Shown: positions 8,359-61,532, counted from the stretch's first letter. The stretch is 64,000 bases of DNA from Lacunisphaera sp. (GCA_029945445.1 JAQSCO010000014.1:161755-225754); one strand, 5' to 3'. Numbers and translations are program-made. Notes: generated by a model from the letters alone, not told the origin.

Positions 8359-8437
8359 TCAAGGTTTCAAGGGTCAGGTATCAAGTGACAAGGCGAAGGC
8401 GGGCAGCTCCTGATACTTGGAACTTGCTACTTGTTAC
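8359..8437. repeat. Imperfect inverted repeat with heptamer-periodic arms (NNCAAG[T/G])
   Basis: Left arm tcaaggt-ttcaagg-gtcaggt-atcaagt-gacaagg (8359-8393); right arm reverse complement aacaagt-agcaagt-tccaagt-atcagg (8409-8437). Confidence 0.7.
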
Positions 8438-9507
8438 TTCGCGCGCGGCAGCGCGCGCCGGGCCGCGGCGGCCTGCGCGAGTTTTTCCAGCAGGGGCACG
8501 GTCTCCTCGAAGCCGAGGCACCCGTCGGTGATGCTCTGCCCGTAGGTGAGTTTCCGGCTGGCCTCGTGGGTCTGGGCGCCGCCGACCAGGTTGCTCTCGA
8601 GCATGAAGCCGATGATCGCGCGCTCGCCGCCCGCCACCTGCGCGGCGAGGTCGGCTGCGACCAGCATCTGCTGCTCGTGCTTCCTGCCGCTGTTGCCGTG
8701 GCTGCAGTCCACCAGCACGACCGGCAGCGCGCCGGATTTCTTCAACAGGTCCGCCGCCGCGTGCACGGACGGCCGGTCGAAGTTCGGGCCGGTGCGGCTG
8801 CCGCCGCGCAGCACGAGGTGGCACTCGGGGTTGCCGGTGGTGGCGAGCACCGCGGGCGCGCCTTCGCGCGTGAGCGAGGGGAAGCAATGCGGGTGCCGCG
8901 CCGACACGATGGCGTCGACCGCCACCTGCAGGTCGCCGTCCGTGCGGTTCTTGAAGCCCACGGGCATCGAGAGGCCCGACGCCAGCTCGCGGTGGATCTG
9001 GCTCTCGGTGGTGCGCGCGCCGATGGCGGCCCACGAGACGAGGTCGGCGTAATACTGGCCGAGCGTCGTGTCGAGGAACTCGGTGCCGATGGGCAGGCCG
9101 GCGGCGTTGATGTCGAGCATCAGCCGGCGGGCGAGGCGCAGGCCGTGGTTGACCTGGAAGCTGCCGTCGAGGTGCGGGTCGTTGATCAGGCCCTTCCAGC
9201 CGACGGTTGTGCGGGGCTTTTCAAAATAGACGCGCATCACGACCAGCAGGTCGCGCGCGAGGCGGTCGGCCACCGGCTTGAGTTTCTTCGCGTAGTCAAG
9301 CGCCGCCGCCGGGTCGTGGATGGAGCAGGGGCCCACGACGGCGATCAGGCGGTCGTCGCGGCCGGCGAGGATGTCGCCGACGGTCCGCCGGGCAGACTGC
9401 ACCAGCGCGGCGCCGGCCTCGGGCAGTGGCAGATCCTCCTCGAGGATCGCCGGCGAAAGGAGCGGGCGGGCGGTGCTGATGCGAAGGTCGGCGGTCGGCT
9501 GGCGCAT
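8434..9507 (-). CDS. aroG: DAHP synthase, class I-alpha (AroF/G/H type)
   Basis: GPCSIHD, RVYFEKPRTTVGWKGLINDP, AIGARTTESQIHRELASGLS, DCSHGNS, YGQSITDGC. Allosteric subtype cannot be assigned by eye. Confidence 0.93.
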   Translation of the reverse strand: MRQPTADLRISTARPLLSPAILEEDLPLPEAGAALVQSARRTVGDILAGRDDRLIAVVGPCSIHDPAAALDYAKKLKPVADRLARDLLVVMRVYFEKPRTTVGWKGLINDPHLDGSFQVNHGLRLARRLMLDINAAGLPIGTEFLDTTLGQYYADLVSWAAIGARTTESQIHRELASGLSMPVGFKNRTDGDLQVAVDAIVSARHPHCFPSLTREGAPAVLATTGNPECHLVLRGGSRTGPNFDRPSVHAAADLLKKSGALPVVLVDCSHGNSGRKHEQQMLVAADLAAQVAGGERAIIGFMLESNLVGGAQTHEASRKLTYGQSITDGCLGFEETVPLLEKLAQAAAARRALPRAK

Positions 9508-9593
9508 GGTGAAAGATCAGTGAACGCACCCCGCCGGAAAAGGCACGGAGATTTTCGTCGCACCCCGCCGCGGCCGGCCGGTAGCTTCCGCGG

Positions 9594-10604
9594 ATGCTAT
9601 TCCTCTGCCAGCACGGCTATGAAGCCCTCCTTGAGCGCGAGCTCGTGGAGGCCGGCCGGCCCGTGGTGGAGAAGGGCGCGGGCTGGGCGTTGGCGACGGA
9701 GGGTTCCGCCGCCGCGGGACTGGCGGAGCTGGCGTTTCCGCACCTGACCCTGCTGGCGCCGCGCGAGTTCAAGGGCGAATCGGTCAACGCGCTCGCGTCG
9801 CAGCTGGCGGACTTTTTCCTCGAAAGCCTGCGCGGCGAGCGGATCGACGCGGCGTGGCCGTGCGTGTTCCAGACCGTGCCGGAGGTCGTCGGCCTCGGGC
9901 GGCGCGCCACCGGCGTGGCGAAGGCCTTCGACGAGCTCCTGCGCAAGAAACTTTCGCGCATCGCCAAGCTGGCCCTGCCGGAGCTGCCGCGCGGCGCGGG
10001 CCCGGCGCGCGGGCTGTTTGTGTTCTTCGCGGATTTCGGCCGGGTGTTCGCGGCGCGCGAGGCCTTCCTCGGCGGGCAGCGCCGCATGGCCGACGACGAC
10101 GCGGCCCCGTCGCGCTCCTACCTGAAGGTCGAGGAGGCCTACATCGTCCTCGGCCGCGAGCCGGCGCCGGGTGAGACCGTCGTGGACCTCGGCGCGGCGC
10201 CGGGCGGGTGGAGCTACAGCGCGGCCAAGCGCGGCGCCAGGGTCATCGCGATCGACAACGGCCCGCTCAAGGGCGGCGCGTTCAACCATCCGCTGATCGA
10301 GCACCGGTTGGAGGATGCGTTCAAGTTCGCGCCGCCGGCCGGCGAGGTATTCGACTGGCTCTTCTGCGATCTCGTCGAGGAGCCGCACCACGTGATGCAG
10401 AACATCGTCGCCCCGTGGCTGGCCCGCCGCTGGTGCCGGCACTTCGTCATCAACCTGAAGTTCGGCCACGTGGACTCGCTCGGCCTGCTCAAGGAGGTGC
10501 GCGCGATTGGCTCGCCCTGCGCCGCGCACGCCGCCAACCTCCGCATCCGCCACCTCTATCACGACCGCGAGGAACTCACGCTGGTCGGCGACACGCGCCC
10601 ATGA
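9594..10604 (+). CDS. rlmM: RlmM-like (FtsJ-family) 23S rRNA 2'-O-ribose methyltransferase
   Basis: SRSYLKVEEA, VDLGAAPGGWS, AIDNGP, DAFKF, WLFCDLVEEP correspond to the RlmM motifs. Confidence 0.78.
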   Translation: MLFLCQHGYEALLERELVEAGRPVVEKGAGWALATEGSAAAGLAELAFPHLTLLAPREFKGESVNALASQLADFFLESLRGERIDAAWPCVFQTVPEVVGLGRRATGVAKAFDELLRKKLSRIAKLALPELPRGAGPARGLFVFFADFGRVFAAREAFLGGQRRMADDDAAPSRSYLKVEEAYIVLGREPAPGETVVDLGAAPGGWSYSAAKRGARVIAIDNGPLKGGAFNHPLIEHRLEDAFKFAPPAGEVFDWLFCDLVEEPHHVMQNIVAPWLARRWCRHFVINLKFGHVDSLGLLKEVRAIGSPCAAHAANLRIRHLYHDREELTLVGDTRP

Positions 10605-11365
10605 AACTCCACGTCCACGCCAAGCAACAGGAACTCAACGTCTGCGGCTGGCAGGCGGTCTCGATGCTGTTCGCCCGGCACCCGGACGACGTGCGGCGGC
10701 TGTTCTTCGACGCGGCGACCGGCAAGCGCGCGGGCGGGTTCTGCTCGCAGCTGGCGGCGCAGAAGAAGGTTTACCGGCAGGTCGAGGCGGCCGAGCTTGA
10801 GAAAGTCGCCGGCACCAAGCTGCACGGCGGCATCGTCGCCGTCATCGGCGAGCGGCCGCTCAAGAAGGTGACGCGCGAGGTTCTCGCGGAATGGGGCCGG
10901 GCGCGCGCGCCGCTGCTGCTGCTCGACCGCGTGAGCAATGCCAACAACGTCGGCGCCATCGTGCGCACCGCGGCGTTCTTCGGCGTGCGGGCGATCATCG
11001 TGCCCGACCACCCGGCGCAGGCGTTGCCGGGCGAGGCGGCCTACCGCGTGGCGGAGGGCGGCATGGAGTTCGTGGATTTCTACCGCGTGCCGGCGCTGCC
11101 GGTGATCTGCGCGGAGCTGAAGCGCCACCATTTCCTCATCGGCACGAGCCTGACCGGCAACCAGCTGTCGCCCGCCCAGGCCAAGGCGCGCGGCATCCCG
11201 CGGCCGCCCGCGATCATCCTTGGTAACGAGGAGCGCGGCATGGCGCCCGAGCTGGCGGCACAGTGCGACCGGCTGGTCAAGATCCCGGGCGTGGACGCGG
11301 TCGAGTCGCTCAACGTCTCCGCGGCCGCCGCGGTGCTGTGCTGGGAGTTTTTCGGCCAGCGCTGA
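10601..11365 (+). CDS. TrmH/SpoU family RNA methyltransferase
   Basis: Start ATG 10601 overlaps the previous stop (ATGA). SPOUT motifs LDRVSNANNVGAIVRTA, LGNEERG, VESLNVSAAAAV. Confidence 0.9.
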   Translation: MKLHVHAKQQELNVCGWQAVSMLFARHPDDVRRLFFDAATGKRAGGFCSQLAAQKKVYRQVEAAELEKVAGTKLHGGIVAVIGERPLKKVTREVLAEWGRARAPLLLLDRVSNANNVGAIVRTAAFFGVRAIIVPDHPAQALPGEAAYRVAEGGMEFVDFYRVPALPVICAELKRHHFLIGTSLTGNQLSPAQAKARGIPRPPAIILGNEERGMAPELAAQCDRLVKIPGVDAVESLNVSAAAAVLCWEFFGQR

Positions 11366-12172
11366 TCAACGCCCGAGCAGCCAGTCGGTGAAGCCATACT
11401 TCGTCGCGGGCGCGGCGGGGGGCACGGGTTCGAACCAGCCCGCCTTCTTGTAGAGGATGACGACATCCTGCATGCCCCAGGCTTCCTCGAGGTAAGCGCG
11501 CAGGATGATGTCGGGGTAGCGCTGCAGCGTGCGCATGAGCCACTCGGGCGACGTGACGGCGAGGCCGTAGTCGCCGTGCTCCGGCTCGAAATATTTCTGG
11601 TAGGCGAAGCCGGTGCGCGCGAAGTCCGCCAGCAGCGCGGGCTTGTCGATGTTCTCGGCGATCTGCTTGTGGCCGCGGGCGAGCAGGCTGGCCACGCCAC
11701 GGCCCTGCGTGGTGAAGACGATAACGCCGCACTCGCGGGTCCACCGCACGAGGCAATCGAGCGTGGCGAGCCAGCGGTCCCGGCTCAGGTGCGTGACGAG
11801 CGAGCCGACCCAGATGAGATCGAACTGCGCCGTGAACGGCAGCTGGGGCAGGTCCGGCACCGAATACACGGGCACCGCGCCGAATTGCTTCGCGCAAAAG
11901 TCCACGCCGTCGCGGTCGAGGTCGCACGCGGTGATTTTGGCGTAGCCGTAATGGGCGCGCAGCCAGCGCAGGACGCGCCCGTGGCCGCAGGGCAGGTCGA
12001 GGATGTCGGGGTAGTGCGGCTTGTCGCAGAGCACAGAGGAGAAATGGATCAGTTCCAGCGCGCGGCGGCCAAGGTCGAAGTATTGCTCCGGATTTTCCGC
12101 CGCGACCATACCGTCGCGGAGCGCGATGGTGCGGTCAACCGTCAGCGAGCCGAAATCATAAAGGGGCTTCAT
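11366..12172 (-). CDS. Class I SAM-dependent methyltransferase
   Basis: Motif I ILDLPCGHGR, motif II TACDLD, FDLIWVGSLVTH. Confidence 0.85.
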   Translation of the reverse strand: MKPLYDFGSLTVDRTIALRDGMVAAENPEQYFDLGRRALELIHFSSVLCDKPHYPDILDLPCGHGRVLRWLRAHYGYAKITACDLDRDGVDFCAKQFGAVPVYSVPDLPQLPFTAQFDLIWVGSLVTHLSRDRWLATLDCLVRWTRECGVIVFTTQGRGVASLLARGHKQIAENIDKPALLADFARTGFAYQKYFEPEHGDYGLAVTSPEWLMRTLQRYPDIILRAYLEEAWGMQDVVILYKKAGWFEPVPPAAPATKYGFTDWLLGR

Positions 12173-12200
12173 CTTGTCCTGCGAATCCGGTTAAGCCTGT

Positions 12201-12824
12201 CTACTCGAGCGTCCGCAGCACGGCGCGGATCGGCGAGCCGTCGCCGCCGCGGATCCGCAGCGGCAGGGCGATGAGTTCGTAGACTCCCGGCGCCACCGCG
12301 CGCAGGTCGAGGTTTTCCAGGATGACAATGCCCGCGGCGGCGCAGGCGTGGTGGATCGGCAGGTCCTTGCTCTCGCGGTGGTCGACCGAGGGGACATCAA
12401 AGCCGACGAGCTTAACGCCGCGGGCCGCGAGCCACGCGGGGAGATCGGGCGTCATCAGCGGCCAGCCGGGCGGGAAGACCGCCGGGTCGGGCCACGAATC
12501 GCTCTTGAAGAGCACGCGCGGCGTCGCGGCGAAATCGTGCGCGGCGAGCTGGGCCGGCGTGATGGTGGCGTGGCCGCGGAGGTCAACGACGCGCGCCGGA
12601 CCGACGTAGGTCCCGACCGGCACCTCGTCGATCTTCGCGCCGGCGTCATTGTAGTGGAAAGGGGCGTCGGCGTGCGTGCCGGTATGCACGCTCAGGGTGA
12701 GCCGCCCGACATTGACGGCCGCGCCTTGCGGGATGGTGACGACCAGCTTGAACTCGGCGGCGGTGTCACCCGGCCAGACGGGCATGCCGGTGTGGATGGG
12801 GCGGGAGATGTCGATGAACTTCAT
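12201..12824 (-). CDS. kynB: Kynurenine formamidase (cyclase family)
   Basis: Start ATG 12824 (MKFIDISRPI) overlaps the kynU stop. HTGTHADAPFH metal motif, GFDVPSVD, ILENLDL, PLRIRGGDGSPIRAV. Confidence 0.88.
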   Translation of the reverse strand: MKFIDISRPIHTGMPVWPGDTAAEFKLVVTIPQGAAVNVGRLTLSVHTGTHADAPFHYNDAGAKIDEVPVGTYVGPARVVDLRGHATITPAQLAAHDFAATPRVLFKSDSWPDPAVFPPGWPLMTPDLPAWLAARGVKLVGFDVPSVDHRESKDLPIHHACAAAGIVILENLDLRAVAPGVYELIALPLRIRGGDGSPIRAVLRTLE

Positions 12825-14083
12825 GTGACAATGGGGCGGGCAGCGGAAAATTTCTCGTGGGCCTTGGTGCGCATGATTTTTTGCAGGCGGGCGATGGCTT
12901 CCGCGCAGTCGGCGAAGCTGGTGTAGAGCGGCGCGGGCGCGAGCCGGATCATGTCGGGCGGGCGGAAATCGGGCACGACACCCGCGGCCTTGAGCGCCGC
13001 GCAGATGCGCCAGGCGTCGGGGTGGGCGAGGGTGATGTGCCCGCCGCGTTCGGCGTCCGCGCGTGGACTGACGAGAGCAAACCCGCAGCCGGCCAGCTCG
13101 CTTTCCACCTGCTCCATTAGGTAGGTTGTCTGGGCGAGCGACTTGGCGCGCAGCGCGGCAATGCCGCCCGCCTCCGTGATGATCTCGAGCGAACCCGCTA
13201 GCGGCGCGAGGCTCAGCAGGTGCGGCGTGCCGATGTGCAGCGCGGAGGCGCCGGCGGCGGGTTCGTGCAGTGCGGTGAGTGCGAAACGCCGGTCGGGCCG
13301 CACGCCCCACCAGCCCGCGAGACCAGGTGCGCGGTGGAAGTGGCGGCGGTTGAGATACAGGCCGCCGACGGCCCCGGGCCCGGCGTTGAGGTATTTGTAG
13401 GAACACCAGAACGCGAAATCCACGCCGTCCGCATCGAGCGCATGCGGCACCGCGCCGATGGAGTGCGAGCAGTCGAAGCCGATGAGGAGGCCGCGGGCGT
13501 GCGCCGCGCGGGTGAGCGCGGCGGCATCGAGCAGCTGCCCGCTGGTGAACTGCACGAGCGAGAGCACCAGCAACTGCACGTCGGGCGCGAGGGCGGCAAG
13601 GATGTCCGCGGGGCGCAGCGTGCGGCCGTCGTGGCTGCGGACGAGGCGCAGGTGCCGCGCCGGGTCGAGTCCGCGCTGCCGCAGGTGGCTCTGCAACGCA
13701 TGCAGGTCGGAGGGAAAGTTCAGCTCGTCGGCGACGATGATATTGCGCGGATTTGCCGGATCAAAAAACGTGGCGAGCAACTGGTGCAGGTTCGTCGTGG
13801 TCGAACCCGTGACGGCGACCTCGTCGGACGCGGCGCCGATGAGCGGGGCGAGTTGCGCGGCGATCGTCTCGCTGAGGCTGATCCAGGGCGGGGCGGCGTC
13901 GGTCCAGCCGCTGATGCCGAGCGCGCGCCACTCGCCGATGACGCGCTGCAGGTGCCCCTCGGCGCGGCGGCTGAGCAGGCCGAGCGAGTTGCCGTCGAGG
14001 TAGACCTGCCCGGACGGCAGGTGGAACTCGGCGCGGAAACGTGCGAGCGGGTCGGCTTGATCGAGCGCTTGGGCGGAACGCAT
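12821..14083 (-). CDS. kynU: Kynureninase (PLP-dependent)
   Basis: Likely start ATG 14083. YLDGNSLGL, FPSD, FDCSHSIGAVP, WCSYKYLNAGPG (PLP lysine), GWWG, RGGH, DFRPP..IRLAPAPLY. Confidence 0.93.
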   Translation of the reverse strand: MRSAQALDQADPLARFRAEFHLPSGQVYLDGNSLGLLSRRAEGHLQRVIGEWRALGISGWTDAAPPWISLSETIAAQLAPLIGAASDEVAVTGSTTTNLHQLLATFFDPANPRNIIVADELNFPSDLHALQSHLRQRGLDPARHLRLVRSHDGRTLRPADILAALAPDVQLLVLSLVQFTSGQLLDAAALTRAAHARGLLIGFDCSHSIGAVPHALDADGVDFAFWCSYKYLNAGPGAVGGLYLNRRHFHRAPGLAGWWGVRPDRRFALTALHEPAAGASALHIGTPHLLSLAPLAGSLEIITEAGGIAALRAKSLAQTTYLMEQVESELAGCGFALVSPRADAERGGHITLAHPDAWRICAALKAAGVVPDFRPPDMIRLAPAPLYTSFADCAEAIARLQKIMRTKAHEKFSAARPIVT

Positions 14084-14171
14084 GGGCGTGAGCGTCGCGA
14101 GAAACGCCGGCGGCGCAAATGCGAAAGCAAATTGGCTGGCCGGGGCCGCGCCGGGCCGCACAATCACCGCC

Positions 14172-15308: not shown

Positions 15309-15320
15309 ACGGCTCCGGAA

Positions 15321-20959: not shown

Positions 20960-20960
20960 G

Positions 20961-24900: not shown

Positions 24901-24975
24901 AGTAAGACACTTGTAGGTCTAACGGCCTTTCTTTTGCGCTCCCCTAAGCGAATCAGTAGACGGCTAAACTCTGGC

Positions 24976-25178
24976 ATGAAAAACGAAGCAGTTTATCTTA
25001 CCATTATTCCGTAGGTACTATTCTACTCCTTGGATTTGGCATTCGCGGGATTATGCGAAAGGGGCGGGATTTTATAAAGAAAGAACTCCAGCAAGCCGCT
25101 GTAATATTAGCAGTAGGCGAGTTGGTCTCTGGGCTCATGTATCTCGGATATTTAATATACGTTTTTTGGTTTCGCTAA
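24976..25178 (+). pseudogene. Frameshifted AT-rich small two-TM ORF
   Basis: ATG 24976 gives MKNEAVYLTIIP*; a -1 shift near 25008 continues SVGTILLLGFGIRGIMRKGRDFIKKELQQAAVILAVGELVSGLMYLGYLIYVFWFR* (TAA 25176-25178). Confidence 0.45.
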
Positions 25179-25209
25179 GACCGAGCCAACAGACGCAGCA
25201 AAAAGAGGA

Positions 25210-26439: not shown

Positions 26440-26503
26440 AGGTTTAAGGGATAAGGTTTAAGCTGTAAGGGTTCTTAAAACTTAAACCTTAAAACTTACA
26501 GCT
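26440..26503. repeat. AT-rich inverted repeat with heptamer-periodic arms (NNTAAG)
   Basis: tttaagg-gataagg-tttaagc-tgtaagg versus cttaaaa-cttaaac-cttaaaa-cttacag; perfect AGCTGTAAG (26461-26469) / CTTACAGCT (26495-26503). Confidence 0.8.
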
Positions 26504-40625: not shown

Positions 40626-40705
40626 TTGTGGGCGGGGTGCCCTTACCCCGCGAGCTGTGGGCAGCAAACGCGAAAACCAGCGGGGTGAGGGCACCCCGCC
40701 CACAA
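40626..40705. repeat. GTRG-type REP doublet (REPIN-like)
   Basis: TTGTGGGCGGGGTGCCCTTACCCCGC (40626-40651) and inverted copy (40680-40705), 25/26 identical; each unit is GTGG plus a hairpin with a CCCT loop. Confidence 0.85.
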
Positions 40706-51196: not shown

Positions 51197-51319
51197 GAGA
51201 GGTTGGCCCGGCCACCTGTCTAGTTCAGCCCGCTGTCGGGGCAACGGGTATTTTCGTCAAAACTGTCTCAAACCCGAGTCTCACGTGAAGGAGCGAAGAC
51301 GCGAAGTTGGACAAAAAAG

Positions 51320-51371
51320 GTAGGGGCGCTTGCCCTCAAGCGCCCGGGCCGTTGAGGGCAATGGACCCTAC
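51320..51371. repeat. Abutting GTAG-type REP doublet
   Basis: GTAGGGGCGCTTGCCCTCAAGCGCCC (51320-51345) and inverted GTAGGGTCCATTGCCCTCAACGGCCC (51346-51371). An adjacent A-run makes the left hairpin a plausible minus-strand terminator. Confidence 0.82.
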
Positions 51372-51385
51372 CCATTCCGCGTGGC

Positions 51386-51913: not shown

Positions 51914-51943
51914 GAGACCTGAAAGCTGAGACTTGAAGCTGAG
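51914..51943. repeat. Solo heptamer-periodic CTGAG arm
   Basis: GAGACCTGAAAGCTGAGACTTGAAGCTGAG; first 18 nt match 27904-27921 inside gspE at 17/18. Confidence 0.6.
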
Positions 51944-51958: not shown

Positions 51959-52060
51959 GCGGCCAATGTTCGTAATACGAACATTCTACTCCCGGCATCG
52001 GGCCGTCAGCCAAGGCGCTGCGCGTCGAAAGGCGGCCAATGTTCGTATTACGAACATTGG
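51959..52060. repeat. Two 27-bp palindromic repeats (TAWTA-centred)
   Basis: GCGGCCAATGTTCGTA[A/T]TACGAACATT at 51959-51985 and 52032-52058, 26/27 identical, 46-bp spacer. Confidence 0.92.
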
Positions 52061-52073
52061 CTCCAAGCACCGC

Positions 52074-52480: not shown

Positions 52481-53056
52481 TTGGGCGCGGTTATTTGTTT
52501 CAGCTGGTATGGCCCCCGGTTTGGGAAGGGCGAATACGTCGAAAATGGTATCCCCACAATCCGGACAACCGACATGAGTAGCGGGACACTTAACCTGTTG
52601 CCTGATGTGCCTCGGGTTAAGGTCACCGACCCAAAGAAAATACGGCTCTACGAATTGCTCGATAACGATCTGCTCATTACTCGGACTGGCTCAATCGGCG
52701 TGATGGCCTTGTTCCCCGGCGGATACCAAGCGTTTCCTTCTGCATACCTAATCCGTTGTCGATTGATGGACCGACGCCTTGGCACTTATGTTTTTATGCT
52801 CCTCCAGTCGCCCTTCGGGCAGGCTCACCTTGGGCTAAACACCAAGACTGGAAACAGGCCCAACATCAATTCAGGGGGCATTGTTTCGGCGCTTGTCCCC
52901 CTCCCTCCGCTTGCTGAGCAAGCCGCAATCGTCGCGCGAGTGGAGGCGCTGATGACGACCTGCCTTACGCTGGAAGCGGAGGTCGATAACTCCCGCACCC
53001 ACGCCGCCCACCTCCTACAGGCCGTGCTCAAAGAGGCCTTCTCGCCCGCGGCGTGA
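52481..53056 (+). pseudogene. hsdS: Orphan 3' half of a type I restriction-modification specificity subunit
   Basis: One TRD (IPTIRTTDM, DLLITRTGSIG, YLIR, NIN) plus conserved VPLPPLAEQAAIVARVEAL and AVLKEAF; no plausible RBS or 5' half; lower GC; no hsdM/hsdR in window. Confidence 0.82.
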
Positions 53057-53150: not shown

Positions 53151-53228
53151 GAATTCGTGTCAGCTTGTCATTGAATTCATGTCACCAACACGGAATTCGT
53201 GTCACCAACACGGATTTAATGTAACCAT
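53151..53228. repeat. 20-bp tandem repeat GAATTCRTGTCACCAACACG
   Basis: Copies at 53173-53192 and 53193-53212, a partial copy at 53151-53162 and a degenerate copy from 53213. Confidence 0.85.
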
Positions 53229-53235: not shown

Positions 53236-54981
53236 TTAGCGGTATTCCTCGTTCGTGTTCGCGTTGATGATCTTGAAGTTTTCGACGTGGTAGTTCGGGT
53301 CGGCGCGGAAGGCCAACTTCACGCCGAAGGTTTTCTCCACGCGCACGAGCAGTTCCGAATCCTCGGAGCGCAGGCGCTCGAGGATCGAGGGGTGCACGTG
53401 GATGCGGAGCGAATACTCCTTGCCGTCCTTCCGCGCCTGGAGGCGGCGGGCGACGGAGGAGAGCTTGCGCTGGAGTTCGACCGACATCGTCGTCGCGGAT
53501 TTCACCATCGCGCGGCCGCGGCAATACGGGCAGCTGGTGTAGAGGTTGGCCGAGAGCGACTCCTGCTGGCGCTGGCGCGTCATCTGCATGATGCCGAGCG
53601 ACGAGATGGGCAGGATGTGCGTCTTGGCCTTGTCCTCCGACATGAGCTCGACCATGCGGTCGTAGACGGAGTTCCGGTGGCGGCGCTCCTTCATGTCGAT
53701 GAAGTCCATGATCACGAGGCCGCCGATGTTGCGCAGGCGGATCTGGCGCGAGATCTCGGTGGCGGCCTCCATGTTGACCTGGAAGATGGTGTTCTTCTCG
53801 TCGCCGGAGCGGCTCTTGTGGGAGCCGGTGTTGACGTCGATGGAGATGAGGGCCTCCGTCTCGTCGATCACGATCTCGCCGCCGGAGGGCAGCGGGACGC
53901 GGCGCTGGAAGGTCTGCTCGATCTGGCGCTCGATGTTGTAGCGCTCGAAGACCGGGATGGAGTCCTTGTAGTAGACGATCTTGCCGCGGGAGCGGTTGGA
54001 GATCTGGCCGACGTAGTCCTGGGTGCGCTTGTAGTCGTCCTCGTTGTCGACGAGCACGCGGTCGATGTCCTCGGTGAGGAAGTCGCGCACGGTGCGCTCG
54101 ACAATGTCGGGCTCCTGGTAGAGGCAGGCGGGGGCGCGGTCGTGCTCCATCTTGCGCATGATCTCGGTCCACTTGGCGAGGAGGAGATGGAGATCGCGGA
54201 CGAAGTAACGCGGCTTCTTGCCCTCGCCGGCGGTGCGGACGATGACGCCCATGCCCTCGGGGATGGTGAGCTCGTTGATGAGGGTCTTGAGGCGCTTGCG
54301 CTCCTGCGGGTCCTCGATCTTGCGGGAGATGCCGCAGCCGTCGGAGAACGGCGTGAGGATGAGGTAGCGGCCGGGGAGGGAGAGGTTCGTCGTGGTGCGC
54401 GGGCCCTTGGTGCCGATGGGGCCCTTGGTGACCTGGATGACGATCTCGCTGCCGGGCGGGTAGAGGCCGGGGATGTCCTTGACGGTCGGCTGCGCGGTGC
54501 GCGGGCCGGCGTCCTTCTTCTTGTTGACGCGCACGACCTCGACGGAGGAGTCGGTGGCGGCCGGGAGCATGTCCCAGTAGTGGAGGAAGGCGTTCTTGTT
54601 ATAGCCGATGTCGACGAAGGCGGCCTTGAGGCCGGGGTCGAGGTTCTTGATGCGGCCCTTGTAGATGCCGCCGACCATGCGGCTGTCGGACTCGCGCTCG
54701 ATCTCGAAGCGGTCGAGGGTGCCGTCGACGAGGAGCGCGACGCGCTTCTCGAGCGGTTCCGAATTGATGACGAGTTCGCGGAAGGAGCCTTTCTCCTTGC
54801 GGAAGATGCTCAGGATTTTCTGGAGGATGGGCCGGTCGGCGGATCGTTCCTTGGATTCCTTGCGCAGTTGGTCGGCTGTGAGGGGCTCGGTGTGCTTCTG
54901 GGGCGGGGGCTGCTGAAGTTCCTCTTCATGGCGTGAGGCGGCGTCCGGGGGGACGCCAGCGTTGGAGGGTTGATCGTTCAT
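53236..54981 (-). CDS. rng: Rne/Rng family ribonuclease (RNase G-like length)
   Basis: S1 domain [35 protein letters not shown]; no long disordered C-terminal tail. Confidence 0.92.
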
Positions 54982-56321: not shown

Positions 56322-56532
56322 AAAAGGGGAGACCCGCCACTAAACACCCGCGGACCCCGCTGGCAACGGCGCAATGGGGGCGAAGGCCGGTCGCGTGGCT
56401 GCGGTTTCCAGCGGCAGGACTCACTGGCTGGAAGGCGGTGCCACTTTCCTGTGAGATTGTAAAACCATCGCGCCCGGCGGCCTTCTGTGGTGTTGCCAAG
56501 CGGGCCGCCGGAGGTAGGTTGGCCGGCCCTAG

Positions 56533-58119
56533 ATGATGACCGTCATCGCCGCCGCCGCCACCAAGCCAATCATTGCCGCCGCCACCGAGCCCTACGTCTG
56601 GGCCCTGCTGGCGGCCGGACTCGTGGGCGTGCTGGGCGGATTCGCCGCCGTCTGGTTCATCACCCGGCAGAACCGCCAACTGGCCGAGGCAAGCGCCAAG
56701 TCCCACCTCGAGCTCGCCAAGCGCGAGGCCGCCGTCGCCGCCCAGGAACTCATCAGCCAGGCCGAGGAGGAAATCCGGAGCCGCGAGGCCGAGCTGAACC
56801 GCGACCTCGACCGCCGCAAGATCGAGATCGAGCTCATGCTGCGCGAGATCCGCTCGCACGAGGAATCGCTCGCGCTGCTCGACTACCAGCTGGAACAGCG
56901 GCAGGACCGCCTCACGCGCGAGGCCGCCGCCATCACGCAGGCGCGCGACGCCATGCGGGACCTTTCGAAAAGCCTCCGCAAGCGCCTCGAGGGCGTTGCC
57001 TCGCTCGACGGCGAGGAAGTCCGCAAGCAGCTGCGCGAGGAGGTTGTGTTCGAATGCCAGGAGGAGCTGCGCATCCTGCGCAAGGAGCTGCTCGAGCGCT
57101 CGGAGCAGGACCTCGTGCAGGAGGGCAAGCGCATCCTCGTCGCCACCATGCAGCGGCTCGCGAGCAAGCCGAACAACGACCTCACCGCGACCATTGTCCA
57201 GCTGCCGAGCGAGGAAATGAAGGGCCGCATCATCGGCCGCGAGGGCCGCAACATCAAATCCTTCGAGGCCGCCACCGGCACCACGCTGCTCATCGACGAG
57301 TCGCCGCAGATGGTGCTCATCTCGTCGTTCGATCCCGTGCGCCGCGAGGTCGCCAAGCTTGCGCTCGAGGGCCTGGTCAAGGACGGTCGCATCCACCCGG
57401 CCAGCATCGAGGAGTTCGTCAACCGCGCGCGGGCCGACATGGACCTGCACGTCGCGCAGATCGGCGAGGAGGCGGTGGACCGCCTGAAGATTTCCGGCCT
57501 GCACCCCGAGGTCATCAAGCTGCTCGGCCGGCTGCGCTTCCGTTTTTCCTACACGCAGAACGTCCTCGACCACTCCATCGAGGTCGCGCAGCTCTGCTCG
57601 ATGCTCGCCTCGGAGATCGGCCTCGAGCCCAACGTCGCCAAGCGCGCCGGCCTGCTGCACGACATCGGCAAGTCCATCGAGGGCGAATACGAGGGCAGCC
57701 ACGCGATCATCGGCGCCGACTTCATCCGCCGCTACGGCGAGACCACGATCGTCGTCAACGCCGTCGCCGCGCACCACGCCGAGGTGAAGCCCGAGACCGT
57801 CTACGCGGGCCTCGTCATCCTCGCCGACGCCATCTCCGCCTCGCGCCCCGGCGCGCGGGCCGAGTCCATGACCTCCTACATCGAGCGGCTCGGCCGGCTT
57901 GAGAAACTCGCGCTGACCATGCCCGGCGTGCAGCAGGCCTTCGCCATCCAGGCCGGCCGTGAGGTGCGCGTCGTGGTGCAGCCGAGCATCGTCACCGACG
58001 AACAAGCGCATGCGCTCGCGAAGAACCTCCGCCTGAAGATCGAGCAGGAGCTCGATTACCCGAGCACCATCAAGGTCACGGTGATCCGCGAGCAGCGCTA
58101 TACGGAAACAGCCACCTGA
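56533..58119 (+). CDS. rny: Ribonuclease Y
   Basis: N-terminal TM, long coiled coil, KH domain KGRIIGREGRNI, HD domain HSIEVA...LLHDIGK, AIQAGREVRV. Confidence 0.95.
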   Translation: MMTVIAAAATKPIIAAATEPYVWALLAAGLVGVLGGFAAVWFITRQNRQLAEASAKSHLELAKREAAVAAQELISQAEEEIRSREAELNRDLDRRKIEIELMLREIRSHEESLALLDYQLEQRQDRLTREAAAITQARDAMRDLSKSLRKRLEGVASLDGEEVRKQLREEVVFECQEELRILRKELLERSEQDLVQEGKRILVATMQRLASKPNNDLTATIVQLPSEEMKGRIIGREGRNIKSFEAATGTTLLIDESPQMVLISSFDPVRREVAKLALEGLVKDGRIHPASIEEFVNRARADMDLHVAQIGEEAVDRLKISGLHPEVIKLLGRLRFRFSYTQNVLDHSIEVAQLCSMLASEIGLEPNVAKRAGLLHDIGKSIEGEYEGSHAIIGADFIRRYGETTIVVNAVAAHHAEVKPETVYAGLVILADAISASRPGARAESMTSYIERLGRLEKLALTMPGVQQAFAIQAGREVRVVVQPSIVTDEQAHALAKNLRLKIEQELDYPSTIKVTVIREQRYTETAT

Positions 58120-58121
58120 GG

Positions 58122-58198
58122 AAGTGACCAGTGATGAGTGATCAGTCATTCAACCGACATTTTCCGGTCTCGTCACTCGTCACTTATCACTTATCACT
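58122..58198. repeat. Inverted repeat with heptamer-periodic AGTGA arms
   Basis: agtgacc-agtgatg-agtgatc versus right-arm reverse complement agtgata-agtgata-agtgacg-agtgacg. Confidence 0.85.
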
Positions 58199-58204
58199 CC
58201 CCGT

Positions 58205-58564
58205 ATGGCCGATAAAAAAATTCTCGAGACCTTCCCGAATCCCGCGCCGGCGCGCGACTACGTGATCGAGCACACGCACCACGAGTTCACGTCGGTGTGC
58301 CCGATGACGGGCCACCCGGACTTCGCCGACATCACCGTCCGCTACGTGGCGGACAAGAAGTGCGTCGAGCTGAAGTCGCTGAAGCTTTACTTCCACGCCT
58401 ACCGCAACGAGGGCATCTTCTTCGAGGCGGCGACGAACCGGATCTGCGACGACCTCGGCGCGGCGCTGAAACCCCGCAGCCTCGCGATCATCGCGAAGTG
58501 GAAGGCACGCGGCGGCTTCTCGTCGGTCGTGACGGCCGAGTGGTCCGCGAAAAAGAAGCGCTGA
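58205..58564 (+). CDS. queF: PreQ0 reductase QueF (type 1)
   Basis: EFTSVCP.TG.PDF catalytic Cys, VELKSLKLY QueF motif, RGG. Confidence 0.92.
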   Translation: MADKKILETFPNPAPARDYVIEHTHHEFTSVCPMTGHPDFADITVRYVADKKCVELKSLKLYFHAYRNEGIFFEAATNRICDDLGAALKPRSLAIIAKWKARGGFSSVVTAEWSAKKKR

Positions 58565-58623
58565 CAAGACCGGCCGCAATCCCACTGTGATCGCACGCGA
58601 CCGGCTCCGCGCTGGTCCCGCCC

Positions 58624-59826
58624 ATGGACGCCCATTACGTTGAATTCCTGAGCATGCTGGTGCGCTGGCTGCACGTGATCGCCGGCATCGCGTGGATCGG
58701 CTCGTCCTTCTACTTCATCTGGCTCGACAACTCGCTCGACGCGCCGGCGCCCGGCTCCGACCTGGCGAAGAAGGGCGTGGGCGGCGAACTCTGGGCCGTG
58801 CACGGCGGCGGCTTCTACAATCCCCAGAAATACCTCGTCGCGCCGGCCGCGCTGCCGGAAAAGCTCCATTGGTTCAAGTGGGAGGCCTACACGACGTGGC
58901 TCTCCGGTACCGCGCTGCTCGTGTTCGTCTACTGGCTCAAGGCCGGAGCGATGATGGTCGACGCCAATGTCAGGGCGCTCACGCCGCTCCAGGCCGTCGG
59001 CATCGGGGCGGCGAGCATGGTGGGTTCGTGGGTCTTCTACGACCTGCTCTGCAAATCCCCGCTCGGCCGGCGCGACGGCCTGCTCGGCCTCGTGGTCTTC
59101 GTCTTCATCGGCGCGCTGAGCTGGGCGCTCGCGCGCACGCTCGGCGGCCGCGCGGCGTTCATCCACGTCGGCACGGCCATCGGCACCATCATGGCGGCGA
59201 ACGTCGCGATGGTCATCATCCCCGGCCAGCGGCGCATGGTCGCGGCGATGAAGGCGGGGCGGGCACCGAATCCCGAGGACGGCCAGCGCGCGAAGCAGCG
59301 CAGCGTGCACAACAACTACTTCACACTCCCAGTGATCTTCATCATGGTGAGCCACCACTACGCGTCGACCTACAGCCATCCCTATAACTGGGCGGTGCTG
59401 ATGCTGATCGTGGCCGCGGGCGTCGTCATCCGGCATTTTTTCAACCGCAAGCACAAGGGCGTCTACGCGTGGCAGTATCCCGCGCTCGGCGCCGGGTTGC
59501 TGGCGATCGTCGCGTGGTGGACCGCGCCGCACCCCTTGCCGCTGCCGCCGGTGGTGGGCCCGGTGACGTTCAACCGCGTGCGCGCCATCATCGGCGAGCG
59601 CTGCGTCACCTGCCATTCGCCGCAGCCGACCTTCCCGGGGTACACCGCGCCGCAGGCCGGCGTGCTGCTGCACACGCCCGCGGACATCGTGCAGAATTCG
59701 CAGCGGCTGTATCAGCAGGTCATCGTCACGCGCATCATGCCGCTCGGCAACCTGACCAAGATCACCGACGAGGAGCGCGCCGTCCTCGCCGCCTGGGTCA
59801 AGGCTGGCGCGAAGATGGAGCCGTGA
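58624..59826 (+). CDS. puuD: Membrane urate hydroxylase PuuD with C-terminal cytochrome c
   Basis: RWLHVIAGIAWIGSSFYF, WAVHGGGFY, LHWFKWEAY, SVHNNYFTLPV, heme motif CVTCH, MPLGN.T. Confidence 0.9.
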   Translation: MDAHYVEFLSMLVRWLHVIAGIAWIGSSFYFIWLDNSLDAPAPGSDLAKKGVGGELWAVHGGGFYNPQKYLVAPAALPEKLHWFKWEAYTTWLSGTALLVFVYWLKAGAMMVDANVRALTPLQAVGIGAASMVGSWVFYDLLCKSPLGRRDGLLGLVVFVFIGALSWALARTLGGRAAFIHVGTAIGTIMAANVAMVIIPGQRRMVAAMKAGRAPNPEDGQRAKQRSVHNNYFTLPVIFIMVSHHYASTYSHPYNWAVLMLIVAAGVVIRHFFNRKHKGVYAWQYPALGAGLLAIVAWWTAPHPLPLPPVVGPVTFNRVRAIIGERCVTCHSPQPTFPGYTAPQAGVLLHTPADIVQNSQRLYQQVIVTRIMPLGNLTKITDEERAVLAAWVKAGAKMEP

Positions 59827-59887
59827 GGGCGCTTAAGCCACGGTGCCGGCTCGACGCGGCGCGGGCGCCGCATTGAGTCTGACCACC

Positions 59888-61291
59888 GTGCCGACCATCG
59901 CCACCAGTCCCGCGCCTTGGGTGCGCCGCCAGCTCATTCGCCGCAGCATGCGCATGAGTGCGCTGGAAGGCGTGCTGGCCATGCCGCTCGTTTACATCTG
60001 CCTGCCCGGCAACCTGGTGCTCGCCGCGCTGCTTAGCCGCGGGCTCGGGCTGCCGCCGGACAGCTACGGGTGGATCGTGTCGCTGCCTTACTGGTGCAAC
60101 TGCGCGCAGCTGGCGCTGATGCCTTTCATCCTGCGCCGATTCTCGGCGCGGCAGGTGTTCCTCGGCCTGCTCTGGGCCAACTCGGCCTGCTGGCTGGTCT
60201 TCGCGGCGGTGCTTTGGTGGCACGGCGACTGGGTCAAGGCGCACGCGGTGAACGTCGCCGGCTGGTTCGTCTTCGCTGGCAGCCTCACCGTCGCGCTGGC
60301 CGGCGTGGCGTGGACAATGTGGATGCACGCGTGGGTGCCGCCGCGGATGCGCGGGGCCTATTTCTCGCAGCGCAACCGGCTGTGCCAGTGGTCCAACTTC
60401 CTCTTCCTGCTCGTGGCCGGCTGGCTGCTGGTCGACCCGACGCCGGCGGCCTTCGCGGTGGTGATCGGCGGGGCGGCGCTCGTGCGCGGCGCCTCCGCCG
60501 TGGCCGCGCACAACGCACCGGCGCCGGGCGACCCGCCGACCCCGGCCGGCCCTTCGCTGCGGGCGCAGTGGCAGGTGCTGAAGGCGGCAAAGTCCTTCCG
60601 GCAGTCGGTGGTGTTCGGCGCGGCGTGGGGCTTTGTGCTGAATGGCTTCGGTGCGTTCCAGCCGGTGTTCATGCTGCAAAGCCTCAGCGACTCGCCCCGC
60701 AGCGCGAGCCTGCCGCTGGCGCTCTCGCTGCTCTTCGGCGCGCTGGCGCTGCCGGCGTGGGGCCGGCTGATCGACCGCCATGGGGCGCGGCCGGTGCTGA
60801 TGTGCGCCGTGGGCTTCTGGGCGCTGGCGGGGCTGCCCTGGATCTTCGTCACGCATGAGACGGCGGGGCTCCTGTATGTGGCGTGGGCGCTGGCCGGCAC
60901 CGCCAACGCAGGCATTGCCCTCGGCCAGCTCAACCTGCTCATGAAGCTCGTGCCCGCCGGCGCGAAATCGCTGGCGGTGGGCCTCAACACCGCCGCGGCG
61001 GCGCTCGGCATGGCCGTGGCGCCCATCTTCGCGGGGCAGCTGCTCGCCTGGGCCCTCGGGCACGACTGGCCGGCCGACGTGGTCTTCCACGGGTTTTTCC
61101 TGACGCTGCCGCTGTTCGCCACGGGGGCGGTGCTGTTCCTGCGCCGCGTGCAGGAGCCGCGCTCGGCGCCGGTCGAGCATGTTCTCGGTGCGCTGCGCAA
61201 CTACCGCGTGCTGGCCGCGACGCTCGGCCTGGGCTTCCTGGCGCAGACGCTGTTCACGCCGCGCGGCGAGTCGAAGCGCAGCGAGTATTGA
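59888..61291 (+). CDS. MFS transporter
   Basis: About 12 TM segments, RGAYFSQRN and WGRLIDRHGARPV motifs. Start uncertain (59843, 59888 or 59948). Confidence 0.82.
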   Translation: MPTIATSPAPWVRRQLIRRSMRMSALEGVLAMPLVYICLPGNLVLAALLSRGLGLPPDSYGWIVSLPYWCNCAQLALMPFILRRFSARQVFLGLLWANSACWLVFAAVLWWHGDWVKAHAVNVAGWFVFAGSLTVALAGVAWTMWMHAWVPPRMRGAYFSQRNRLCQWSNFLFLLVAGWLLVDPTPAAFAVVIGGAALVRGASAVAAHNAPAPGDPPTPAGPSLRAQWQVLKAAKSFRQSVVFGAAWGFVLNGFGAFQPVFMLQSLSDSPRSASLPLALSLLFGALALPAWGRLIDRHGARPVLMCAVGFWALAGLPWIFVTHETAGLLYVAWALAGTANAGIALGQLNLLMKLVPAGAKSLAVGLNTAAAALGMAVAPIFAGQLLAWALGHDWPADVVFHGFFLTLPLFATGAVLFLRRVQEPRSAPVEHVLGALRNYRVLAATLGLGFLAQTLFTPRGESKRSEY

Positions 61292-61297
61292 GCGGGG

Positions 61298-61460
61298 TCA
61301 GGGTTTCAACGCGGCCAGCACGGCCGCGTGCAATTCCGGGGTGGCAGCGGCAACCGTGGACTCCGCCGGGTCGGCCGCGCCGGCCGAAGAGCGGACGGAT
61401 GAAATCCCCGCTGGCCCGGGCGAGCCCATGGGTGAAGTCGCGGTAAGGCGTCAGATCCAT
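61298..61460 (-). pseudogene. hisN: Internally deleted hisN-like (inositol monophosphatase family) gene
   Basis: ATG 61460 reads MDLTPYRDFTHGLARASGDFIRPLFG; a different frame ends ADPAESTVAAATPELHAAVLAALKP* (TGA 61298-61300). Both resemble IMPase-family termini; the catalytic middle is missing. Confidence 0.62.
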
Positions 61461-61470
61461 GGCAGAGGAT

Positions 61471-61532
61471 GGCCCACGAAATGCACGAAAGGGACACGAA
61501 TATTTTCGTGGGTTTCGTGGGTTTCGTGGGCC
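61471..61532. repeat. Inverted repeat with nonamer-periodic CACGAAA arms
   Basis: GGCCCACGAAATGCACGAAAGGGACACGAA, TATT loop, then (TTCGTGGG[T/C]) x3; outer 11 bp are a perfect inverted repeat. Confidence 0.85.

Follow-up and report, generated by a model that had tools for sequence, protein, structure and literature searches.

We read the six hairpins found in the window (the whole stretch of 64,000 nucleotides analysed here, from an Opitutaceae MAG, Verrucomicrobia, 67.5% GC), with confidence somewhat above even, as gene-less members of two related classes of palindromic insertional cassette. Together, such hairpins and cassettes point to a widespread, barely described insertional element, and no description of this architecture was found in the literature searched. 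In its full form the element would carry one small gene in the loop between arms built from short tandem arrays. Where the units are 7-8 nt long and the 5' arm is G-rich, this would be a TIGR02436/PF05635 four-helix-bundle (DGR-Avd-like) gene; between arms of three 8-10-nt C(A/G)C..A. units, often ending in (A)ACC.../...GGT(T), it would be a TIGR04256/PF13366 GxxExxY gene of the PD-(D/E)XK type. Hairpins and cassettes share one architecture and window arms match gene-flanking arms; hairpins were gained, lost and replaced at orthologous junctions; the insertions were placed directly after the host stop codon, in host orientation; and other elements were nested in their loops.

The first-pass annotation had claimed six inverted-repeat elements, and all six were present, with boundaries re-drawn as given in Table 1. 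They are AT-rich, with arms of 3-5 tandem units of 7-10 nt each. The two solo arms reported at 51914 and inside gspE were also confirmed and have the motif GAGACCTGAAA in common. Five of the six elements folded strongly, with RNAfold z-scores of -3.2 to -10.5 on at least one strand. The remaining one, 8357-8440, is a weakly pairing element, both arms of which are NNNCAAG/CTTGNNN heptamer arrays with the unit cores kept and the variable positions unpaired. Scanning the window for periodic inverted repeats returned 6 regions, whereas 40 dinucleotide-preserving shuffles averaged 0.17 and never gave more than 1; as the scan misses 8357-8440, one of these 6 is not a claimed element.

Table 1. Periodic hairpins and solo arrays of the window, with repeat units, TRF arrays, folding and similarity to arms that flank genes in cassettes.
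Feature	Position	Strand	Setting	Units	TRF arrays (period)	RNAfold z	Arm comparison
Heptamer-type element	8357-8440	-	between aroG stop (8434-8436) and glxK start (8355)	about five GGKNNCAA facing about four CTTGNNN	8414-8439 (7)	-1.5/-1.0	four-helix-bundle-flanking arms: 15.5 vs null 8.0, p<0.01
Heptamer-type hairpin	26440-26503	-	fills gap from gspE stop to gspF start	AGGTTTA/AGGGATA in one arm; CTTAAAA/CTTAAAC in the other	26440-26470, 26474-26498 (7)	-3.2/-5.4	four-helix-bundle-type arms: 10.5 vs shuffle mean of about 8, p=0.02
Heptamer-type hairpin	58120-58201	+	rny stop (58117-58119) to 3 nt before queF ATG (58205)	AGTGATC and GTCACTY	58123-58146, 58169-58199 (7)	-5.7/-6.3	four-helix-bundle-type arms, e.g. 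L136 AGTGATTAGTGATT: 14.0 vs about 8, p<0.01
CACGAA-type hairpin	37027-37105	-	between bshB1 and bshA	three per arm: TTCACCACGAAG / GCACGAAG / ACACAAAG and CTTGGTGC / CTCCGTGT / CTTGGTGGTGAA	37032-37054 (8)	-3.4/-5.3	GxxExxY-flanking arms (L163): 12 vs null of about 7, p<0.01
CACGAA-type hairpin	38736-38805	-	between Na/solute symporter and 257-aa protein	two to three 10-nt units		-5.1/-8.0	gene-flanking arms: match not significant
CACGAA-type hairpin	61469-61534	+	between MFS gene and exonuclease-like ORF, 10 nt before its start (61545)	CCCACGAAA / TGCACGAAA / GGGACACGAA and TTTCGTGGG x3	61504-61530 (9; three perfect units)	-10.5/-9.9	GxxExxY-type arms: 12 vs null of about 7, p=0.01
Solo heptamer array	27904-27934	-	in frame, N-terminal region of gspE	GAGACCTGAAACCTGAGAGCTGAGACCTGAAG			
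Solo heptamer array	51914-51943		intergenic; no partner arm within about 100 nt				

All six elements lie between co-oriented genes. Five of them fill the stop-to-start gap, as had been claimed from the sequence at first sight; the sixth (61469-61534) lies 177 nt past the previous stop codon. At 38736-38805 the right arm encodes the last approximately 10 residues and the stop codon (38775-38777) of the symporter. An identical copy of 58120-58201 is carried by a second contig (L001, GCA_029945605.1). Loops of the heptamer-type elements measure 4-38 nt, and the three CACGAA-type hairpins share the CACGAA core at different spacings (spacers of 8, 9 and 10 nt). Intrinsic terminators were ruled out: direct reading of the sense strand found no U-tract downstream of any of the six (ATGCGCG, CTCTCGGCATG, TTCTCTGTCGCATG, CACTCCCTTCC, CCGTATGG and AACTTTGGG), and the stems have a higher AT content than the genome. 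The build of the arms, in which tandem units recur every 7-10 nt and keep their cores (CACGAA included) while the spacers vary, would also suit serial binding sites of a DNA-binding or nucleoid protein of the host, regulatory or structural, conserved for that role and unrelated to mobility. We consider this very improbable, since unit sequences differ widely between close relatives at one junction, most relatives have no element there, and the units follow the enclosed gene and not the host.

Genes of the TIGR02436 family were analysed in metagenome loci taken as the top 80 hits of an alignment that had been seeded with a hand-written consensus, a sample which is thereby biased toward one part of the family. 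Inverted 7-8-nt arrays bracketed the four-helix-bundle gene in 47 of 66 loci. Flanking inverted repeats beat all shuffles in 51 of the 66, the 47 periodic ones among these 51 having period 8 (n=31) or period 7 (n=16). The median arm length was 33 nt, with a median of 15 nt from the end of the 5' arm to the start codon, and the gene ran in the same direction as its two neighbours in 30 loci, as against 3 in which it was antisense to both. Two cassettes with different units were found on one contig (L143). Heptamer arrays also flank four-helix-bundle genes on plasmids of Nostoc, Calothrix and Pseudanabaena, the latter being exceptional in that its arrays are direct and not inverted. Membership of the proteins in their family was confirmed. 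The four-helix-bundle proteins further matched bAvd (PF22296) and NF033474, both below the cut-off scores; from these matches they are probably small, basic, oligomeric nucleic-acid binders.

The 5' arm was G-rich in 46 of the 47 periodic four-helix-bundle cassettes. Such polarity agrees with a mechanism in which repeats are copied from a template onto the two 3' ends of a break (telomerase-like or by a reverse transcriptase), with help from an Avd-like protein, before the ends are joined; by its own logic, synthesis at both ends would yield facing arrays, a fixed strand polarity and variable filler. A locus with alike arms and different loops (L079), the arms of 8357-8440, which are one unit family with independent variable positions, and the relationship of the four-helix-bundle protein to the DGR accessory factor Avd are in line with this explanation. 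In contrast to DGR Avd, however, the four-helix-bundle genes stand alone inside repeat arms, with no template repeat or variable repeat adjoining them, and no linked reverse transcriptase was found in any locus read. Moreover, unit lengths vary among hairpins of one genome, GxxExxY cassettes show a similar geometry without an Avd-like protein, and one of them (L197) has the opposite polarity, its arms standing in reverse order. An origin by templated synthesis is accordingly regarded as highly unlikely.

For the TIGR04256 family, three-unit arms of 8-10-nt units were found within or adjoining the GxxExxY gene in 15 of 21 contexts, cultured isolates (Bacteroides finegoldii, Bernardetia, Gemmatirosa, Luteolibacter) included. 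The units are of the CACGAA/CACAGAG/CGCCAAG kind, and the design consists of a core C(A/G)C..A., outer ends like (TT)CACC or AACC, and three units per arm; it is matched by 37027-37105 and 61469-61534 (compare L163, L187, L189, L191, L210 and L211). In 9 of the 10 contexts with gene calls, it pointed the same way as the gene upstream of it. Some GxxExxY genes sit between complete hairpins and not inside one, and the tandem copy number differs between two strains (L177 and L179). The first-pass annotation had suggested that TIGR02436-like and GxxExxY genes are often flanked by such arms, and the counts for both families support this suggestion.

Comparing window arms with cassette arms, all three heptamer-type elements matched four-helix-bundle-type arms (p<=0.02) and none matched GxxExxY-type arms, while two of the three CACGAA-type hairpins matched GxxExxY-type arms (p<=0.01), 37027-37105 also being comparable with the Bacteroides finegoldii arms GTTCACCACAGAGGACGCAGAGGACACGGAGG. 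The initial division into a heptamer and a CACGAA type is real and also meaningful, as the types map onto two gene families. Period 7 of the heptamer elements falls within the range of the cassette arms (7-8). No PF05635 gene was found by hmmsearch among all six-frame ORFs of the window; the loops of the heptamer elements being without it, these are gene-less forms and not full members. A PF13366 GxxExxY gene was likewise absent from the window. In 80 related Opitutaceae-type loci (1.2 Mb) neither gene was found, save one GxxExxY-like gene (L020), so the hairpins are linked to the genes by arm similarity only in this genome. Among the cassettes, the arm unit co-varied with the enclosed protein (Spearman rho 0.71). 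Flanks were shared in 1 of 124 cassette pairs with proteins at least 70% identical and in 7 of 1081 pairs overall; related cassettes sit in unrelated genomic contexts. Given the gene-family association and the mapping of two types onto two families, the earlier suggestion that the window hairpins are empty or non-autonomous forms is a reasonable one.

Two orthologous junctions were compared in about 75 relatives, as had been proposed as a check, and presence/absence polymorphism was observed at both, also between strains of one environment. Stop and start were tight in most relatives; others contained a hairpin built on another unit, a pair of REP sequences or elements nested in one another. 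At the bshB1/bshA junction an overlapping TGAcATG was found in L015, L016, L020-L022, L035, L039 and L044 and L019 had a plain spacer. In the window, L003, L005, L007, L052, L063 and L079 it was occupied by periodic hairpins that differ in their units, in L009, L011 and L012 by a periodic hairpin with a nested palindrome, and in L004, L006, L014 and L018 by REP pairs. Some 50 relatives had a tight symporter/257-aa junction, while about 12 had an element there. Metatranscriptome contigs from relatives of L023 showed differing hairpin types at one junction, and one contig (X24) documents transcription through a hairpin, spanning L023 9496-10012. Nested elements were seen in the loops of L010, L022, L033 and L043. 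The unit CACGGATGNA was found repeatedly, at different loci and in different genera. Among copies in one genome, sharing of a unit core without the spacer length, or of arms without the loops, argues against simple whole-element copy-and-paste.

The position exactly between co-transcribed genes, the strong folding, the hairpin transcribed through and the acceptance of other insertions in loops would also be expected of host RNA elements evolved in place. Here slippage would duplicate units, selection would keep the long stem as a processing site (e.g. for RNase III), stabiliser or coupling device in the operon transcript, and small genes would settle there. Where 23S rRNA intervening sequences carry a gene of this protein family, their stems are cut by RNase III, which counts for this alternative. 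Nevertheless, it is unlikely: one unit recurs across loci and genera, arm units follow the enclosed protein, junctions that are tight in most relatives gain the whole element at once, 8357-8440 retains unit cores without pairing, and none of the six is followed by a U-tract. Furthermore, sense-strand G-U versus A-C mismatches numbered 57 versus 69 in cassettes and 38 versus 57 in empty hairpins, so that the wobble pairs of neither set pointed to selection acting on the RNA structure. By this one indirect test, with no sense-strand G-U excess, the suggestion of an RNA-processing system made alongside that of a mobile one was left unsupported.

REP/REPIN elements with RAYT are likewise short intergenic palindromes, often at gene 3' ends, nestable and polymorphic (PMC3733652, PMC3116915). 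GTAG-type REP pairs are present alongside the periodic hairpins in these genomes (for example at window 51319-51372 and in L014, L018 and L057), in some cases at the very same junctions. The periodic hairpins, however, are internally repetitive, not near-identical per genome and tied to two small non-transposase genes, and were rejected as REP/REPIN for want of the GTAG/CGTC tag (the first letters of the arms are, for instance, TTCACCAC, GGCCCAC, AGGTTTA or GGAAGTGA). As miniature inverted-repeat transposable elements they were rejected as well: no direct repeats indicative of target-site duplication were seen at the elements, their TTAA-like ends belonging to the palindrome, and the window copies share only a 6-nt core. 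That they are ordinary miniature or REP-like elements served in trans by a conventional transposase (RAYT/IS200-type or DDE), with the genes as passengers, would agree with terminal inverted repeats, intergenic sites, presence/absence polymorphism, the nesting with REP pairs and a faint Y1_Tnp match near one cassette. We consider it distinctly unlikely in view of the missing tag and duplication, the dissimilarity of the copies, arms which are internally repetitive and co-vary with the enclosed protein and not with any transposase, and the absence of a transposase adjoining the hairpins in the window. Correia/NEMIS and ERIC are palindromic insertions of about 100-150 bp, co-transcribed with flanking genes, whose stems are RNase III targets and alter mRNA stability. 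Unlike the window hairpins, they follow a defined consensus, are flanked by TA duplications and lack arms made of tandem units, and we know of no autonomous gene-bearing partner of this kind for them.

The protein family bracketed by heptamer-type arms is that of ORF-bearing 23S rRNA intervening sequences (Leptospira, Coxiella; 23S_rRNA_IVP, PF05635), in which a host transcript likewise contains a long stem with a small ORF in its loop. Members are also reported from rRNA gene insertions of CPR bacteria (PMC11270868). In contrast to these, the window hairpins lie between protein-coding genes and are ORF-less in most copies of this clade, and in the searched literature on intervening sequences arms built from tandem repeats were without mention. 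Rfam detected no rRNA in the window or in seven loci tested, and an rRNA intervening sequence was ruled out for the window hairpins by the lack of rRNA and by their setting. Near relatives in design are the heptamer repeats found between genes in Xanthomonas (GGGAATC) and in Nostoc (GGGGAYT), together with the cyanobacterial STRR. In the parts of Rehm et al. (2015; PMC4692102) available to us, the Xanthomonas/Nostoc arrays have mostly four units, are 89-93% intergenic, lie chiefly in gaps between ORFs of one orientation and not far from the upstream gene, form 70-75 convergent pairs per genome with stem-loop potential, differ in length and sequence between sister species, and are read as G-quadruplex motifs or simple-sequence repeats; those parts describe no gene-family link, cassette or mobility model. 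The 8-10-nt three-unit class, by contrast, falls outside these heptamers.

Under the reading as insertional cassettes, these would be selfish DNA-level insertions relying on read-through transcription of the host operon. Each protein, whether GxxExxY nuclease or oligomeric four-helix bundle, may recognise the repeat units of its own arms as cis sites and act there for spread or self-regulation, and empty hairpins may be non-autonomous copies, deletion products or landing pads having the same sites. Folding of the stem would loop the insert out and hold stop and start close, which would explain why tight stop/start junctions tolerate insertions. To our knowledge, no mobility function has been demonstrated for either protein family.

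More broadly, and only tentatively, at clearly less than an even chance, we suggest a new class of selfish element across many phyla, in which a protein of about 120 aa, an Avd-like four-helix bundle or a GxxExxY PD-(D/E)XK nuclease, recognises its own arm units and spreads or persists through them. It would extend over Verrucomicrobiota, Bacteroidota, Cyanobacteriota, Gemmatimonadota, Planctomycetota, Chloroflexota and Nitrospirota-like contigs. Within operons and rRNA genes, hairpin landing pads would receive or keep the protein gene, and the non-autonomous remains of the element would be the gene-less hairpins, the STRR arrays of cyanobacteria and the heptamer pairs of Xanthomonas. TIGR02436 and TIGR04256 are huge, with at least about 8000 proteins each among the matches listed, and we know of no function for either; nor do we know of an accepted explanation for the cyanobacterial and Xanthomonas heptamer repeats since their first description. 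These are joined by one architecture, namely inverted arms made of repeats, a small gene enclosed by them, insertion after the host stop codon in host orientation and many gene-less copies, which makes the problem directly testable. If true, the broad reading would give a role to two very large function-less families, and ORF-bearing rRNA intervening sequences would become one special case. Annotation is affected as well, as insertions can split genes (metH), rewrite C-termini (the window symporter) and lie within defence and CRISPR operons.

All six periodic inverted repeats described in the first-pass annotation were present on reading the sequence of the window (67.5% G+C; a queF look-up found an identical contig in GCA_029945605.1). 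Their arms are tandem arrays, with a period of 7 in three elements and of 8, 9, and 10 in the other three. A scan counted 6 periodic inverted repeats in the window versus a mean of 0.17 and a maximum of 1 in 40 dinucleotide shuffles; as it missed the element at 8357-8440, its six regions include one outside the described set. Most arms escaped a strict tandem-array finder, which gave way to a long-range inverted-repeat search. Folding predicted a strong hairpin, on one or both strands, for five of the six elements (z -3.2 to -10.5), while 8357-8440 paired poorly (z -1.5 and -1.0) and yet kept NNNCAAG/CTTGNNN units in both arms. Gene calls, made by family searches and a gene finder based on simple codon bias, place all six between co-oriented genes; five span from upstream stop to downstream start. 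The sense strand carried no U-tract after any hairpin (0/6, sequence reading), and reading of the flanks found no target-site duplications. Neither the window (at the gathering threshold) nor seven cassette loci, in which such arms bracket a small gene, matched any Rfam family. Among the 7-mers enriched in intergenic DNA, stop-codon words prevailed, and counts of single motifs gave a weak signal.

Comparing BshA of the window with species-representative genomes yielded 80 related loci (1.2 Mb), the best matches being 75-81% identical and coming from Lacunisphaera, Didemnitutus, Opitutus, and other Opitutaceae MAGs; this places the window in an uncultured member of the Opitutaceae (Verrucomicrobiota). 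The presence/absence variation to be looked for at orthologous junctions became visible. At bshB1/bshA, many relatives showed a stop/start overlap (TGAcATG), one genome a plain spacer, four genomes GTAG-type REP pairs, and several genomes periodic hairpins with differing units (CACGAAG, CACGAAT, CACTGAG, CGCGGAG, CACGGAG); in three genomes a GC-rich palindrome was nested in the loop of the periodic hairpin. The junction between the symporter gene and the 257-aa gene was tight (-10 to +20 nt) in about 50 relatives and held a periodic hairpin in about 12. Among metatranscriptome contigs matching locus L023, one spans bshB1, hairpin, and bshA. Loose ends of other contigs carry CACGGAT-type arms in place of the whole spacer, in co-occurring strains, or a CGCAAAG-type sequence that joins a short way upstream of the hairpin. 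Elements were gained, lost, and swapped.

Over all loci, the periodic class typically had 3 units of 8-10 nt or 4-5 units of 7 nt per arm, giving an arm of about 28-33 nt independent of the unit. Loop length ranged between 4 and about 150 nt, and loops frequently contained other elements, among them a second periodic hairpin in L022 and REP pairs in L010 and L033; in L043 a periodic hairpin was nested within a REP pair. Hairpin loops were hot spots of insertion. One rival explanation holds that the hairpins are host RNA elements which evolved in place. The unit CACGGATGNA was found at more than one junction and in more than one genus, which counts against an in-place origin by slippage. Conventional MITE or REP elements are another rival, and the GTAG-type pairs are a second palindromic family in the same genomes. 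Two hairpins of locus L079, 1.5 kb apart, have near-identical arms and unrelated loops of about 80 nt, so that whole-element copying in its simple form offers no explanation.

The first-pass annotation had proposed that four-helix-bundle and GxxExxY genes are often flanked by such arms. Offline HMM searches found no four-helix-bundle gene in the window and the 80 related loci, and a GxxExxY-like gene in one related locus only (L020) and none in the window. Neither TIGR02436 nor TIGR04256 occurred among the matches listed for 131 small predicted proteins of the related loci against NCBIfam. For each of the two families a hand-written consensus sequence served solely as bait for real members; the fetched members were confirmed as TIGR02436/PF05635, with sub-threshold bAvd/Avd matches, and as TIGR04256/PF13366. 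With an alignment of real four-helix-bundle proteins as query, the 80 best-matching loci were retrieved from metagenomes; the analysis covered the 66 that had 160 nt or more to either side. In 51 of these 66 the flanking inverted repeat was better than in all 20 shuffles, and the arms of 47 of the 51 were periodic (period 8 in 31, period 7 in 16), so the proposed link holds for 47/66 loci. The 5' arm was G-rich in 46 of the 47. Arms had a median length of 33 nt; the 5' arm usually began no more than a few nt from the upstream stop and ended a median of 15 nt before the start codon, and the 3' arm began a median of 7 nt past the match end.

Flanks were shared in 7 of 1081 pairs among the 47 cassettes and in 1 of the 124 pairs whose proteins were 70% or more identical; related four-helix-bundle cassettes therefore occupy unrelated places. 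Arms shared a fraction of 0.003 of their 6-mers where the proteins were less than 45% identical, and a fraction of 0.55 where identity reached 75% or above (Spearman 0.71). Arms and gene were inherited together. One contig (L143) carried two cassettes with different units. The gene ran in the direction of both neighbours in 30 loci and against both in 3; it depends on host orientation. At one site in three relatives (L126-L128), arm units all differed and the proteins had diverged, reflecting repeated insertion or else a long stay at the site with concerted evolution of the arms. An internal stop splits the gene into two ORFs in L100, L110, and L122 with the arms still there, making these loci candidates for decaying cassettes.

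For GxxExxY genes, a scan of viral contigs added 8 loci only, and arms were assessed by reading in 21 independent contexts. Arms were classed by unit motif, because G-C skew separates CACGGAG-type arms poorly. Here, too, the proposed link was supported: C(A/G)C..A.-type arms with units of 8-10 nt occurred in 15/21 contexts. They bracket the gene in L163, L170, L187, L189, L191, L210, and L211 and partly in L162 and L209, form complete hairpins on both sides in L177, L195, L199, L201, and L208, and stand in reversed order in L197. Other periodic arrays were present in 5/21, and L169 alone was devoid of any. Orientation and placement followed the pattern of the four-helix-bundle genes. Sites in finished genomes were fabD/fabG, ade/guanylyltransferase, and radA/next gene. 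In Bacteroides finegoldii the order is radA-TAG-GTTCACCACAGAGGACGCAGAGGACACGGAGG-[gene]-CTCTGTGACCTCTGTGTCCTCTGTGGTGAA-ATG, with arms in the same style as TTCACCACGAAGGCACGAAGACACAAAG...GGTGGTGAA of the window. In two different Verrucomicrobia the cassette lies between the halves of a split metH, exactly where the homocysteine-binding part (S-methyl_trans) and the pterin/B12 parts are separately called genes; either the cassette entered a pre-existing split, or its insertion made the split. Defence-type operons held GxxExxY genes in L191 (SNF2 helicase/DUF1156 protein) and L195 (unknown gene on one side, HEPN_Swt1/DUF499 protein on the other).

All three heptamer arms of the window matched the arms of four-helix-bundle genes (p<=0.02) and none matched those of GxxExxY genes. 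Of the three CACGAA arms, two matched the GxxExxY set (p<=0.01) but not the four-helix-bundle set. The proposed kinship with gene-flanking arms applies to these five, the third CACGAA arm being the exception. Overall, the interpretation of the first-pass annotation was largely borne out, and the result reaches well beyond the window.

A wobble-pair asymmetry test, an indirect probe of selection on the sense RNA, was negative: G-U pairs were not in excess over A-C mismatches on the sense strand (57 versus 69 in cassettes, 38 versus 57 in empty hairpins). Taken with 8357-8440, whose unit cores survive although the arms pair poorly, the result speaks for the repeat units themselves, and not the RNA stem, as the conserved feature. 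We favour a selfish cassette acting at the DNA level, whose own units would be recognised by its protein. Gene-less hairpins would then be non-autonomous copies or landing pads, and a folded stem might make an insertion bearable at tight stop/start junctions. Rival readings of the units are arrays bound by host proteins and arms made by templated repeat addition.

The closest described system are ORF-bearing 23S rRNA intervening sequences, which contain the four-helix-bundle protein family (PMC11270868), followed by intergenic heptamer arrays of Xanthomonas and Nostoc. According to Rehm et al. (2015; PMC4692102) these arrays mostly have four units, lie mainly between co-oriented ORFs, form 70-75 convergent pairs per genome, and are interpreted as G-quadruplex motifs. 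On plasmids of Nostoc, Calothrix, and Pseudanabaena heptamer arrays flank four-helix-bundle genes, so the cyanobacterial repeats belong to the same picture. A search for ORF-free flanks found no cassettes in rRNA. In the literature searched, we found no published description of repeat-built arms around either gene family; earlier notes, e.g., family-model comments, may exist. We rate hairpins and cassettes as akin to known kinds, namely intervening sequences and insertion elements of palindromic form, and not as categorically new.

Repeat elements and islands of the window, and selected loci of other genomes (L-numbers)
Location	Feature	Sequence or unit	Context
8357-8440; 26440-26503; 58120-58201	Periodic inverted repeats	Heptamer type
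37027-37105; 61469-61534	Periodic inverted repeats	CACGAA type
38736-38805	Periodic inverted repeat	CACGAA type	Right arm is last ten codons and stop of upstream symporter
27904-27934	In-frame heptamer array	GAGACCTGAAA	gspE coding sequence (..SSQVSGLH..)
51914-51943	Solo array	GAGACCTGAAA	Intergenic
40626-40705; 51319-51372	GC-rich REP-like inverted pairs	TTGTGGGCGGGGTGCCC...GGGCACCCCGCCCACAA; GGTAGGGGCGCTTGCCCTCAAGCGCCC...	Same family as next row
L004 9916-9981; L011 3590-3652	REP-like pairs		Orthologous junctions
2551-2629	Longest inverted repeat there, 31-nt arms, 94% complementary, AT-rich, non-periodic	ATGTCAACTAATAGTATACTAAGACCCGGGC	32 nt from gene 2662-3927 (-)
51962-52061	21-bp perfect palindrome x2, 76 bp apart	AATGTTCGTAATACGAACATT; AATGTTCGTATTACGAACATT	DUF5069 gene/cupin gene interval
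53173-53227	Direct repeat, 20 nt x2.8	GAATTCATGTCACCAACACG	Overlaps 3' end of 581-aa gene 53236-54981 (-) and 42% G+C stretch just downstream
24944-25194	Low-GC island, 250 nt, 43% G+C		Beside gspF; no called gene, no Rfam match
52481-53056	Low-GC island		ORF with partial type I restriction specificity (Methylase_S) domain
L079 8203-8331; 9854-9982	Hairpins	CACGGAG
L126-L128 (~1250-1920 each)	Four-helix-bundle cassettes	GGGTTCNN; AGGGANAN; GGTGACCN	PLP-dependent enzyme/threonine synthase
L170/L171 1113-1642; L187 195-702	GxxExxY cassettes		Split metH
L020 16330-17500	264-aa GxxExxY-like protein, three copies of another hairpin type around	~16-nt units, TCTTCCTGCCAATAAA... and ...GGTAGGAAGATTTTGT	Opitutaceae MAG

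The array within gspE is possibly an arm captured into a variable N-terminal linker. The two perfect palindromes look like a pair of operator sites, and the Methylase_S ORF is probably a fragment. In Pseudanabaena (L207), cas6 and cas4 of a defence-type operon enclose a four-helix-bundle gene; the long heptamer arrays on its flanks, with 17 and about 13 units, are direct and not inverted.
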